Source: a virus. Taken from it: a DNA stretch of 64,000 nucleotides. Below the pieces are notes generated by a model. That model had not been told where the DNA came from. It worked only from the letters and a program-made list of their open reading frames with translations, and searched no databases. The position numbers were made by a program, and so were the translations under genes. Below, piece by piece: positions 9,447 to 19,920 of the stretch; the first letter of the stretch is position 1; each line of letters begins with the position of its first letter. The DNA is taken from positions 9,513 to 73,512 of IMG/VR virus record IMGVR_UViG_3300029825_000003; one strand, given 5' to 3'.

Positions 9447-9515
9447 ATGTCACCTGTAGTATATACAGTGCACCCAATATATTTAAGTGTTTGGGTGATT
9501 GGACTTTGAAAAAAA

Positions 9516-13050: not shown

Positions 13051-15123
13051 TCAGATTACCTTATAATATCCCTCCTGGGAACACAGTATATCTCCTCTCT
13101 CTTTCATTTTCCGAAGTAATTCTTCAGGTTCCTTAATCCCTTCGTTAAGACATTTCTCTATGATTTCCTCCCTTCTTACAGATTTATCTCTAGTTGTATC
13201 TTTATCAGAAATTGATTTTATTATATTGACTATCTTTCGAATCTTCCTAGATTGACTCATAGAAGTCCCACAGGCAAGTACATTCGCGTCAAGTTCACCG
13301 GTTTCCGGGTCTATTCCAACATTTTTAAGATTATTATAAAATATTTCAACTGCTGCCTTCGCGTCTTCTTCTTCAATCATATCAGATAATCTTAATCTGG
13401 CGTGCGCAGTTGCAAGCCTGTAAGCAGCTTCCAGTGTACGAGCTGTTATAGGGATTGTATCAGTTCTCCCACCTGCAGCCCCTCTTGTACCTACAAAAAA
13501 GTCTATTATCATTTCCTCGGCTTCATCGGTAAGCACCGGGAAAACATGAGTTCGAATATAAGCAATACATTTTCTTAAAAGTTCAAGGTCTATTTCTGGT
13601 TCAATAATTTCCTTTTTGCCACGTAAGGCCCCTAAAATATGTTTAGCGAGCTTCCTATCAGTATCAGGGTTCGGAGTGTCCCGTAAGATAAAAAGTAGGT
13701 CCATCCTCGAAATAAAAGCGTCTCCATGTGTGATCTGTTCAGCAATTGGTGTATATTTGTCATACCGCCCATACTTAGGATTTGCAGCCCCTAAAAAGGC
13801 AGTCCGGGTAAAAAGGTCAGCTTTCACAACTTTGTTAATATGTACTATCTGTTGCTCTAATGCTTCATGGATTGAACCTAATTGCCCCTGCTTCATTTTA
13901 TCAAGCTCATCGGCACAACATATACCACCATCCGCTAGTGTTAAGGCGCCCGGCTGAATCCACCATTTGCCGTCCATCTCGTCTTTAACAGCTCCACCTG
14001 TTAAACCGGCCTCCGAAGTGGACCTCCCTGAGAATTCTACGGCACGAGGGGAATATTTAGCTACAAACGCGAGTAATTGACTCTTTGCTACCCCCGGATC
14101 ACCTACTAACATCATATGGATATCTCCTCTTTTCCTGGTCCCATCTGGAAGGTCTATAGCCATCCCACCCACCATCTGAAGAGCAAGACCAAGTTTAACG
14201 TCTTCAAGTCCAAAAATAGAAGGAGCTATAGATCGGAGGATTTTAGCTTTCAGTACTCCTTCCGATGCCCACTGTTGAAATAAATCAGCTTCTTCTTTTG
14301 AAATCTCAATATTTTCATAATCAGAATCAGATTTCTCGATAGAATTAGCAATGAATGTAAAGTCCTGATATTTGCTTTTCTGAGTACCTATAAGTTTAAG
14401 TCGGCCTTTCAAGATCCCAGTTATTATTACTTTATCTCCTGGAGTAGTAGCCCCGGCAATATCATAAGAACACGATACATTAAGAAATTCAGGGAGTTTC
14501 CCTCTTAGATTCTCAATAGGCTCCTGAATCTTAACATATTGATGATCATATTTAACGGACTCATCTTCTTTAATTTTAAAGTGTTTTTTATTCCCACATG
14601 TAGTGTTTTCACACTCATACGGTTCAATTAAAGAGTCAACGTCATCCAACTGCATTATCTTGTTTACATGCCCACAAATCATACAAACATGTGCAGACTG
14701 TTTAAATGCTGGTCTTACTTCAGATGCCTTTGAAATAACGCACCTGATCGCTAAAAACTTTTCAAGGTGAATATCTCTCAATTTAGATATACTAACTTCT
14801 GAAGTCTGAGGGAGTCCAGTAACTCTAACTATAACATCAGGGAGATTCTTATCTAGTAAGTCAATCTCGGATATTGCTTCAGTTGCAGCCTCAAACCATT
14901 CAGAAGGAGCATTTAAAAGACGATCTGCAATTTCCTTATTATACAATGCAATATGCCTAAATTCAACATACAAACTTTTTTTATCAGGATAAATCTCACT
15001 TAAATATAATAGATCATCCCAATATTGTTTTGGTGCTAAATCTTTATGATTTTTCCCTTTATTTACGTATAACCCCCTACTAAAAAATATTTTAAGTTTC
15101 TCCTTCAGCATATCGTAATCCAT
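13051..15123 (-). CDS. mcm: MCM replicative helicase
   Basis: Zn finger CMIC...C, Walker A GDPGVAKS, Walker B ADGGICCADELDKM, IHEALEQQ, AANPKYGRY, SRMDL, TARTLE; no intein. Confidence 0.97.
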   Translation of the reverse strand: MDYDMLKEKLKIFFSRGLYVNKGKNHKDLAPKQYWDDLLYLSEIYPDKKSLYVEFRHIALYNKEIADRLLNAPSEWFEAATEAISEIDLLDKNLPDVIVRVTGLPQTSEVSISKLRDIHLEKFLAIRCVISKASEVRPAFKQSAHVCMICGHVNKIMQLDDVDSLIEPYECENTTCGNKKHFKIKEDESVKYDHQYVKIQEPIENLRGKLPEFLNVSCSYDIAGATTPGDKVIITGILKGRLKLIGTQKSKYQDFTFIANSIEKSDSDYENIEISKEEADLFQQWASEGVLKAKILRSIAPSIFGLEDVKLGLALQMVGGMAIDLPDGTRKRGDIHMMLVGDPGVAKSQLLAFVAKYSPRAVEFSGRSTSEAGLTGGAVKDEMDGKWWIQPGALTLADGGICCADELDKMKQGQLGSIHEALEQQIVHINKVVKADLFTRTAFLGAANPKYGRYDKYTPIAEQITHGDAFISRMDLLFILRDTPNPDTDRKLAKHILGALRGKKEIIEPEIDLELLRKCIAYIRTHVFPVLTDEAEEMIIDFFVGTRGAAGGRTDTIPITARTLEAAYRLATAHARLRLSDMIEEEDAKAAVEIFYNNLKNVGIDPETGELDANVLACGTSMSQSRKIRKIVNIIKSISDKDTTRDKSVRREEIIEKCLNEGIKEPEELLRKMKERGDILCSQEGYYKVI

Positions 15124-18979: not shown

Positions 18980-19017
18980 TTTTTATCACCATCTTATTTT
19001 AAAAAAACCGTTTTTCA

Positions 19018-19090
19018 AACTCCTATCAGGATTCGAACCTGAGACCAAGAGTCCAAAGCTCTTGATGATTGCCCGCTACACCATAGGAGT
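19018..19090 (-). tRNA. tRNA-Gln (UUG)
   Basis: Complete cloverleaf ACTCCTA/TAGGAGT, GTG/CAT, AAGAG-CTTTGGA-CTCTT, TCAGG-TTCGAAT-CCTGA; archaeal A1:U72; no encoded CCA. Confidence 0.93.
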
Positions 19091-19096
19091 ATACTG

Positions 19097-19243
19097 GCCC
19101 CGGCACCGCCAGGGCAAACGTACGCTGAGAACTGATCCGGTTGCCTTACACCTCTGCAAGGCTCGTTTTTCTGGTAGAAACAAAGATCCGTTTTTACGAC
19201 TCATCCTACGTGTTTTTTTGTTATGTGTCCGGGTTGTCCCGGA
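19097..19243 (-). ncRNA. Multi-hairpin structured spacer RNA
   Basis: Stems at 19097-19115 (8 bp), 19143-19162 (8 bp) and 19228-19243 (6 bp); G-U pairs form only on the minus strand. Confidence 0.55.
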
Positions 19244-19314
19244 TGCCGTAAGAAGGATTCGAACCTTCATCACACGACTTTGCAGAAGTGGTCTGCCAGT
19301 TGATATATTACGGC
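19244..19314 (-). pseudogene. Degenerate tRNA-Cys(GCA)-like unit
   Basis: Perfect acceptor GCCGTAA/TTACGGC and T arm GAAGG-TTCGAAT-CCTTC; D loop TCAACTGGCAGA; anticodon arm 2 nt short and mispaired around CTGCAAA. Confidence 0.65.
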
Positions 19315-19369
19315 AATTTGTAGATAGGCGCGGTATGCAAGACGCCTACCCAGGTGTTTGAGGTATAAT

Positions 19370-19446
19370 CGCCGTACCGGGGAATTTCACCCCGCAGACC
19401 TCTATGCACAAAGGACGATTTTTTTGTCTGTCTCAGAGATTACGGC
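19370..19446 (-). ncRNA. tRNA-like unit sharing the GCCGTA acceptor with 19244..19314
   Basis: GCCGTA/TACGGC, T-like arm CGGGG-TGAAATT-CCCCG, central CCTTT-GTGCAT-AGAGG stem-loop. Confidence 0.5.
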
Positions 19447-19453
19447 ACGCGGT

Positions 19454-19482
19454 ACACCCCTGTAGGAGGTTAACAGGGGTGT
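19454..19482 (-). ncRNA. Perfect 10-bp hairpin with anti-SD loop UAACCUCCU
   Basis: ACACCCCTGT-N9-ACAGGGGTGT. Confidence 0.6.
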
Positions 19483-19492
19483 TTTATCGTGA

Positions 19493-19587
19493 AGCTGTCT
19501 TCCGGGTTTGAACCTGGAGGGGGGGGATTGTGGGGTAGTCTTTTTTGGGTGAAGAAAGAGACTTATCCAAACCCTTCATAAGACAGC
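19493..19587 (-). ncRNA. tRNA-like unit (acceptor plus T-like arm, enlarged middle)
   Basis: GCTGTCTT/AAGACAGC 8 bp; GG-TTCAAAC-CC T loop just 5' of the 3' acceptor strand. Confidence 0.45.
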
Positions 19588-19594
19588 ATTAAGC

Positions 19595-19753
19595 TCAAAT
19601 TTTAACAGATATCGGCTTGATGCCTTTTTCAATGTGCAGGGATTCAAGCCCCCTTCTCACGATATCCCGTTTTGCTTCTGCTACTGATTTGTACATCACC
19701 GGTACAAGCCTTTCAAGTTCTGTGTTTTGAATATCTGTTAAATCTTTGTCCAT
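19595..19753 (-). CDS. Small RHH/CopG-like regulator (52 aa)
   Basis: Read by hand: MDKDL...YKSVAEAKRDIVRRGLESL. Confidence 0.6.
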   Translation of the reverse strand: MDKDLTDIQNTELERLVPVMYKSVAEAKRDIVRRGLESLHIEKGIKPISVKI

Positions 19754-19759
19754 TTAGAT

Positions 19760-19920
19760 ACTACCTAATCAGTAATAATCTTACTGATTACTACTAAGTA
19801 GGTAATACTATTATAAATACCTTATCTTTTTGTTTGAGTTATACCACTAATAGAATACTATATGGGTGTGGAAAGGATACTTTATACCACTATAAAGGTA
19901 TCATGAAACTTATATATAGA
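19760..19920. promoter_or_regulatory. Divergent control region between two RHH genes
   Basis: AATCAGTAA-N5-TTACTGATT (19767-19789), CTACT-A-AGTAG, ATACCACTA twice, TATA boxes on both strands. Confidence 0.65.

Follow-up and report, generated by a model that had tools for sequence, protein, structure and literature searches.

A block of tRNA look-alikes and hairpins in an archaeal virus, probably one transcript cut by host RNase P and tRNase Z

In the TMERs of murine gammaherpesvirus 68 and in the MALAT1 mascRNA, a transfer RNA (tRNA)-like unit is followed by hairpins, and tRNase Z frees the downstream RNA. The tRNA cluster of phage T4 is polycistronic, and the tRNA-processing enzymes that act on it also yield two stable RNAs, species 1 and 2, whose function is unknown. 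Here we describe a non-coding block of 570 bases with one real tRNA, three tRNA look-alikes and several hairpins on its minus strand. It lies in a 64,000-nucleotide (nt) stretch of viral DNA, referred to as the window herein (positions 9,513 to 73,512 of the IMG/VR record IMGVR_UViG_3300029825_000003). As in the TMERs and mascRNA, the tRNA-like parts of this array do not serve decoding; those systems differ in being eukaryotic, in their transcription by RNA polymerase III or II and in the entry of their products into the microRNA pathway, which has no archaeal counterpart. The T4 cluster differs in being bacterial and in consisting mostly of real tRNAs, against one member in four here. The reading we favour, with moderate confidence, is that the block is one early viral transcription unit whose tRNA-like elements (t-elements) are cut by host RNase P and tRNase Z.

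The initial annotation of this DNA did not recognise the arrangement as a described system, yet a precedent exists in the t-elements of plant mitochondria (PMC1920247) and Haloferax (PMC4326828). The plant mitochondrial t-elements are substrates of RNase P and tRNase Z and, once excised, are able to persist as small RNAs (Forner et al. 2007, PMC1920247). Like the units described here, they are non-canonical, keep the acceptor stem and T arm, and lie beside mRNA ends with stem-loops alongside. The present elements differ in belonging to an archaeal virus and in forming a single array together with hairpin RNAs and a genuine tRNA instead of being scattered beside genes, and their ends are predicted ones. 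In Haloferax volcanii, a natural t-element upstream of 5S rRNA sets the 5′ end of that RNA, and engineered t-elements were used to release a CRISPR RNA (crRNA) (Hölzle et al. 2008 and 2012, cited in PMC4326828). The likeness is that tRNA-like structures in an archaeon are cut by tRNase Z and RNase P and set the ends of another RNA, and the engineered crRNA between t-elements resembles one of the arrays described below (G225), in which a CRISPR repeat follows the t-elements. The Haloferax element is cellular and single, and haloarchaea are distant enough from Methanosarcina that no sequence kinship is expected. Full-text literature searches returned no paper in which RNase P, tRNA-like elements and viruses of archaea are brought together. 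The t-element principle is known, whereas its use in an archaeal virus array appears to be undescribed; the new aspects are the setting in an archaeal virus, the concentration in a single array that also includes hairpin RNAs and a real tRNA, and a natural size series running from 71 to 33 nt.

Our analysis bears out the array that the initial annotation had outlined. The block holds a sound tRNA-Gln(UUG), a degenerate tRNA (unit 3), two further tRNA-like units (units 1 and 2) and four strong hairpins (hp1 to hp4), all on the minus strand, to which the G-U pairs in the stems of the folds assign it (Table 1). As had also been stated, it is GC-rich (49% G+C vs 39% for the window), and the region folds better than its shuffled versions (z -4.4). 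A strict scan for an acceptor stem plus a T arm picks up unit 3 and the tRNA-Gln, where chance would give 0.67 matches over both strands of the whole window. The tRNA-Gln proved, as annotated, to be an intact decoding tRNA by both ARAGORN and Rfam. Unit 3 scores above the Rfam tRNA threshold (35.6 vs 29 bits) and has a perfect acceptor stem of 7 base pairs (bp) and a 5-bp T arm with a 7-nt loop, which the free fold stacks on each other. Its D stem is broken (three of four pairs are non-canonical), its anticodon stem has one non-canonical pair, and ARAGORN calls it only under relaxed settings, as an 8-nt-loop or mitochondrial type. Despite an overall identity of 93%, its anticodon-equivalent bases differ from those of its homologue on the metagenome contig L037; with the broken D stem, this sets unit 3 apart from decoding tRNAs.

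For units 1 and 2, a 1-kb search at E ≤ 10 returned no match to any Rfam family, and neither qualifies as a decoding tRNA. Intron-bearing or split archaeal tRNAs were considered and rejected for both: intron-aware ARAGORN gave nothing credible, its relaxed intron calls were spurious (on the wrong strand or spanning several units), and no bulge-helix-bulge motif was seen on inspection. Unit 2 folds with a 6-bp acceptor beside a 5-bp T-like hairpin with a non-canonical 7-nt loop, and it also has a long 7+7-bp arm with G-U pairs. It has its acceptor sequence in common with unit 3 and, together with hp2, is an insertion relative to the sister arrays, present only in this window. Unit 1, for which we name the U1 type, combines an acceptor stem of 8 bp with a conserved centre and a T arm limited to 4 bp and bearing a bulged A; when folded freely, the unit instead joins the T-arm region to a 5′ segment, in rivalry with the T arm. 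The earlier claim that all three aberrant units keep an acceptor stem and a T-like arm stands for units 2 and 3 and is qualified for unit 1 by this weak T arm.

Homologous arrays occur in at least eight other Methanosarcina virus or provirus loci (our handles are G for genomes, C for contigs and L for loci). BLAST against 284 Methanosarcinales genomes gave two proviruses, in G218 and G225; a pattern of unit 3 plus hp3 gave these two again in IMG/VR and, in addition, L037; a pattern for the viral-type tRNA-Gln gave L041/L046, L048 and L050/L051/L052; and the covariance model R1, built from unit 1, gave three additional copies in G242 and G266. With R1, five more full members of the U1 type were found, and this element is conserved in six loci; an exact pattern derived from unit 1 had no match. 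The arrays follow a common plan. A promoter or small open reading frame (ORF) precedes an optional U1-type unit, hp1 with its CCUCC loop, a spacer of about 6 nt and a tRNA-like element, after which come an abutting hairpin, a poorly conserved spacer, a further hairpin, another spacer of about 6 nt and the tRNA-Gln. Most units, and every tRNA-Gln, are preceded by a hairpin at a distance of 5-7 nt, the distance being 10 and 13 nt in L015 and L037, and most arrays have a hairpin abutting the 3′ end of the unit. In the window, hp2 ends 6 nt before unit 3, with G-U pairs that form on the minus strand only; hp3, which is conserved in G218, G225 and L037, starts immediately past the unit 3 discriminator base; and hp4 ends six bases ahead of the tRNA-Gln. 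The initial annotation had made hp2 an 8-bp hairpin at 19323-19350; by folding it is longer, at 11 bp. Variants of the plan include G225, where an ORF is situated between two tRNA-like units; L037, with the order tRNA-Ser, ORF, unit-3 homologue, tRNA-Gln and 48-nt mini-unit; and G266 and G242, where a U1-type unit stands alone between ORFs. A small ORF of the pattern Cys-x-Cys...Cys lies downstream of the tRNA-Gln in G218 (L015, oriented position ~1900 onward) and between two tRNA-like units in G225 (L017, oriented positions 1096-1440); since its position differs between these two proviruses, ORFs and units have been shuffled relative to each other.

Two alignments bear on which part of the units is maintained. 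The first (A4) is a MAFFT alignment of eight units, including unit 2, that was not fitted to the structure. At the 12 acceptor and T-stem pairs tested, 93.5% of the cells are paired, compared with 81% after shuffling (0 of 500 shuffles reached the observed value), and just 36-47% of the cells pair when the pairing partner is slid. Six of these 12 pairs show changes on both sides, with a covariation score that none of 500 shuffles reached. The second (A5) comprises six U1-type members and, having been fitted to the model, is biased towards the structure; here 94.4% of the cells pair, both sides have changed in five of the 12 pairs, and again 0 of 500 shuffles reached the score. The sister arrays point the same way: where the window has the 71-nt unit 3, they carry elements that are 67, 58, 55 or 33 nt long, the shortest of which (in L041) is a bare minihelix of a 6-bp acceptor and a 6-bp T stem. 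In all units the stacked acceptor/T length is about 11-13 bp, the length that tRNA end-processing enzymes measure. All have the non-canonical cloverleaf with the acceptor stacked on the T arm that characterises t-elements, the unit 1 T arm being weak. To judge from these sequences, the stack is what is kept, the D/anticodon half being free to vary and the centre dispensable. Taken together, A4, A5 and the sister arrays uphold the earlier view of the aberrant units as non-decoding tRNA look-alikes that keep the acceptor/T stack and have lost the D/anticodon half, and add that they are under selection.

The same data speak to whether the block is a decaying tRNA gene cluster, its units being functionless pseudogenes on the way out. 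Decay could account for the residual tRNA score of unit 3 (35.6 bits), for the acceptor sequence common to units 2 and 3, as after a duplication, and for the absence of a unit 2 homologue elsewhere. However, a rotting cluster would lose pairs randomly and would not outlast its flanks, and we therefore favour function: both stems are kept by compensatory changes in A4 and A5, and identity to L037 is 93% for unit 3, 77% for the tRNA-Gln and 52% for the flanking spacer. Moreover, the same broken state is retained in loci with completely diverged flanks, and the U1-type element is conserved in six loci. Uncompensated decay across related loci, a possibility the initial annotation had raised against its own proposal, was looked for, and compensated change was found instead. 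The compensatory changes and the L037 identities largely refute decay, which we regard as very improbable.

Oligo-T is the termination signal of archaeal RNA polymerase. The minus strand of the array contains five runs of at least five A and zero runs of at least five T, the sister arrays are likewise free of internal oligo-T, and a T7 run, likely the terminator of the unit, directly follows the tRNA-Gln. Because oligo-T terminates the archaeal enzyme, this distribution suggests a single minus-strand transcript that ends after the tRNA-Gln; beyond the T7 run, an A/T-rich promoter-like stretch precedes the next genes. The layout, with ORFs and hairpin RNAs between the units, fits elements embedded in a longer transcript, which would read from the small ORF through the tRNA-like elements and hairpin RNAs to the tRNA-Gln. 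In the mechanism we propose, the three aberrant units would be tRNA derivatives retained solely for the ~12-bp acceptor/T stack that RNase P and tRNase Z recognise. Cuts at the ends of the units and of the tRNA-Gln would free the tRNA, set the 3′ end of the small-ORF message and release the intervening pieces as discrete small RNAs, along with the tRNA-like units themselves. With the cuts made, the upstream product would be protected at its 3′ end by a hairpin lying some 6 nt before the cut, and the product that follows would be capped at its 5′ end by one beginning directly behind the discriminator. The longest predicted intervening RNA, of ~153 nt, would have hp3 at its start and would end at 19091, directly before the tRNA-Gln. 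That host tRNA-processing enzymes cut at the tRNA-like units had been hypothesised in the initial annotation. The layout is as expected for this, and RNase P RNA (193-206 bits) and RNase Z (375-383 bits) were both found in candidate host genomes; transcription as one unit, the cuts and a function for the released RNAs are what we infer from the sequence.

Table 1 Features of the array and predicted products of its processing (positions in the window)
Feature	Positions	Strand	Basis
Small 52-aa ORF, head of transcription unit	19595..19753	minus	ORF list
Unit 1, 95-nt tRNA-like element, U1 type	19493..19587	minus	fold; covariance model R1 79 bits
hp1, 10-bp hairpin, 9-nt loop	19454..19482	minus	fold z -4.7
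Unit 2, 77-nt Y-shaped tRNA-like element	19370..19446	minus	fold
hp2, 11-bp hairpin including three G-U pairs	19321..19352	minus	fold
Unit 3, degenerate tRNA (t-element)	19244..19314	minus	Rfam tRNA 35.6 bits
hp3, 6-bp hairpin	19228..19243	minus	fold
Spacer 2, body and hp4 of predicted ~153-nt RNA	19091..19227	minus	fold z -3.5
hp4, 8-bp hairpin, 3′ end of spacer 2	19097..19115	minus	fold
tRNA-Gln(UUG), last array member	19018..19090	minus	ARAGORN; Rfam RF00005 51.6 bits
T7 run, likely archaeal terminator	19001..19007	minus	sequence; directly after tRNA-Gln
Predicted product: small-ORF message	ends ~19588	minus	inferred cuts
Predicted product: unit 1	19587-19493	minus	inferred cuts
Predicted product: 46-nt hp1 RNA (CCUCC loop)	19492-19447	minus	inferred cuts
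Predicted product: unit 2	19446-19370	minus	inferred cuts
Predicted product: 55-nt hp2 RNA	19369-19315	minus	inferred cuts
Predicted product: unit 3	19314-19244	minus	inferred cuts
Predicted product: 153-nt RNA, hairpins at both ends	19243-19091	minus	inferred cuts
Predicted product: tRNA-Gln	19090-19018	minus	inferred cuts

Several observations weigh against cutting by host enzymes as the whole explanation. Unit 1 has a weak T arm together with a conserved rival pairing able to mask it, and for unit 2 and hp2, which have no homologue elsewhere, the case is one of modelled folds. The nearest whole-virus relatives by MCM helicase (L002-L006; 67-79% identity) lack an array near their replication genes, which indicates that the array is accessory; within 8 kb, neither tRNAs nor Rfam matches nor array-like sequence turned up in these relatives, the absence being uninformative for two of the contigs, which end 1.6-1.7 kb upstream of MCM. 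Since t-elements are restricted to this one array per virus, they are not a general punctuation of viral messages. Lastly, unit 3 and the centre of the U1 type are more conserved in sequence than a mere cutting signal would require.

This last point touches an alternative in which the tRNA-like RNAs are themselves the product, stable mimics that bind, titrate or mislead a host factor reading the top half of tRNA, with processing merely their route of maturation. Candidate factors are the CCA-adding enzyme, an elongation factor, a synthetase, a modification enzyme or a defence nuclease directed at the acceptor/T region. In its favour, identity is higher for unit 3 than for the real tRNA (93% vs 77%), the U1 type keeps a conserved centre and the rival pairing beyond the acceptor/T stack, and nearly all units have GCC at the start and GGC at the end, which could be an identity element. 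Yet the element in the unit 3 slot shrinks to a 33-nt minihelix with no conserved centre, and no partner protein is encoded adjacent to the array. The anticodon-equivalent region is not conserved either, so that mimicry aimed at anticodon nucleases is unlikely; the units would be poor mimics for such enzymes, and the suggestion in the initial annotation that they act as decoys against tRNA-targeting defences found no support. On balance we consider mimics as the product unlikely, though not negligibly so.

Throughout the U1 type, a G-rich segment on the 5′ side stays complementary to the element's own T arm, the two pairings of the T arm being mutually exclusive. The rival pairing joins A5 columns 17-29 with 89-101 (about 19558-19571 with 19497-19511 in the window); RNAalifold prefers it, with 91.5% of cells paired, and its covariation was not above that of shuffles. 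From these models, it may be a switch or a relic. The loop of hp1 carries CCUCC, resembling the 3′ end of 16S rRNA, and homologous hairpins with this loop are found at 4518-4541 of L041, 5311-5334 of L048, 12148-12173 of L050 and 3650-3675 of L052. Every array that possesses hp1 keeps CCUCC in its loop, while one stem pair has changed from U-A to G-C. These features could also fit an array that is mainly a cis-regulatory leader or trailer, in which the CCUCC hairpin and the switchable U1-type element control the translation or stability of the neighbours and the likeness to tRNA is incidental to origin. Such a role is suggested by the conserved loop, by the two mutually exclusive conserved pairings and by the start of hp1 directly past the small-ORF stop codon in L041, L048, L050 and L052. 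However, reading through the arrays revealed no conserved GGAGG partner for the hp1 loop, and regulation in cis leaves the retention of a ~12-bp acceptor/T stack in every unit unexplained; we judge it improbable as the main role. As a separate observation on this family, a look-alike of a tRNA 3′ part, consisting of a T arm and a 3′ acceptor strand with no matching 5′ strand, lies ~60 nt after the U1-type unit of L060 (oriented positions 1640-1690; G242:C3 near 274300). Judging from its sequence, it may be an integration scar at the provirus end.

Integration has also to be weighed for the units themselves, which could be attachment sites (attP), ends of host tRNA genes copied into the virus to serve integration, as has been proposed for halovirus HF2. 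That archaeal tailed virus has a low-scoring tRNA-like gene, resembling the units in this respect, which lies beside its integrase and matches the 3′ ends of host tRNAs (PMC8707807). Sister arrays do occur in integrated proviruses, and those in G225 and G242 have the predicted end of a provirus, or a 3′ piece of a tRNA, close by. Here, in contrast, no tyrosine integrase domain (PF00589) was found anywhere in the 73.5-kb virus, and no tRNA matching units 1-3 was found in the 284 Methanosarcinales genomes, where only proviruses matched. Both acceptor strands are present and covary, indicating constraint at the level of RNA rather than DNA, and no second copy of a unit flanks the proviruses. We find a role as attachment sites scarcely credible.

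The virus record is 73.5 kb long, is rated complete by CheckV and contains the window as a part. Its host is taken to be a Methanosarcina-like methanogen because CRISPR spacers match the viral tRNA-Gln and because of the kinship of the MCM helicase (13051-15123, minus strand), whose closest relatives are from metagenomic virus-like contigs, Methanosarcina and other Methanosarcinales. Spacers of two CRISPR arrays in Methanosarcinales genomes match the tRNA-Gln gene, one at 25 of 25 bases (19018-19042) and the other at 34 of 35 (19037-19071); they are located in L021 (G274:C1 near 739140) and L016 (G243:C58 near 284858). This shows that the viral tRNA-Gln is different enough from the host tRNA to be targeted by CRISPR. 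CRISPR also enters through one of the sister arrays. In G225 the tRNA-Gln slot is occupied by a solitary 32-nt CRISPR repeat (L017/L053; G225:C1:1773634-1773665, minus strand) that is identical in 32 of 32 bases to the repeat of an 18-repeat CRISPR array in G274. A second copy (L056; G225:C1:1776826-1776857, plus strand) follows an A/T-rich promoter-like stretch, and these are the only two scattered copies. A solitary CRISPR repeat in a virus is a signature of RNA anti-CRISPRs (PMC10651486). By their sequence, both G225 repeats are candidates for RNA anti-CRISPRs or for a mini-array, and the placement of the first within the array suggests that the array serves the release of small RNAs.

A bolder form of our reading is a modular small-RNA factory, in which mimics of the tRNA top half guide host enzymes to excise viral regulatory RNAs. 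The products would include an anti-Shine-Dalgarno hairpin possibly acting on translation and, in the sister virus, a CRISPR repeat that is possibly an RNA anti-CRISPR, with the U1-type element as a conformational switch that would turn recognition of itself on or off. We put this forward tentatively and hold it to be doubtful as a whole.

Spacer 2 conserves its terminal hairpins and short motifs, the remainder being the part that is 52% identical to L037. It is not a small protein gene, the ORF of 48 codons here being reduced to 6 codons in G218 and 11 in G225, so that no ORF is conserved. Readings of its conserved motif GGAUGAG as a C/D box or as hammerhead-like or K-turn-like were tried by eye and none fits, and an Rfam search of the spacers returned nothing at E ≤ 10. 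A 32-nt stretch of spacer 2 (19163-19194, minus strand) is 91% identical to an intergenic site in L024/L057 (G221:C1:1216230-1216257); the match is probably due to chance, being a single copy in one Methanosarcina genome and absent from four others. The motif GAAAAACGG is present at 19008-19016, right after the tRNA-Gln, and at 19194-19202 within spacer 2 (minus strand), that is, twice within 600 nt of the window. It also follows the tRNA-Gln in L050/L052 and the tRNA-Ser in L037, and its core 7-mer, AAAACGG, has 9 copies on the same strand across all 64 kb of the window.

At the head of the unit, the stop codon of the 52-aa ORF lies 7 nt upstream of unit 1, and a small ORF is found at the equivalent position in L041, L048, L050 and L052. 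The label of a ribbon-helix-helix (RHH) gene that this ORF had received could not be verified, as it had no Pfam or PHROG match. Upstream of it, an A/T-rich TATA-like box and two inverted repeats (19754-19840, minus strand) look, by sequence, like an operator-controlled early promoter. The array region gave no match in public phage records, and neither the MCM helicase nor the small ORF, used singly as protein queries against viral contigs, brought up relatives.

RNA processing in archaeal viruses is almost unstudied. If our reading is correct, these viruses borrow the tRNA-maturation enzymes of their hosts to carve a message, several small RNAs and a tRNA out of one transcript, the candidate small RNAs being a mimic of the anti-Shine-Dalgarno sequence and, in a related virus, one of a CRISPR repeat. 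The array gives precise predicted cut sites, and its series from a near-complete tRNA to a 33-nt minihelix would define what archaeal RNase P and tRNase Z require. Low-scoring "pseudo-tRNAs" in virus annotations can be selected elements.

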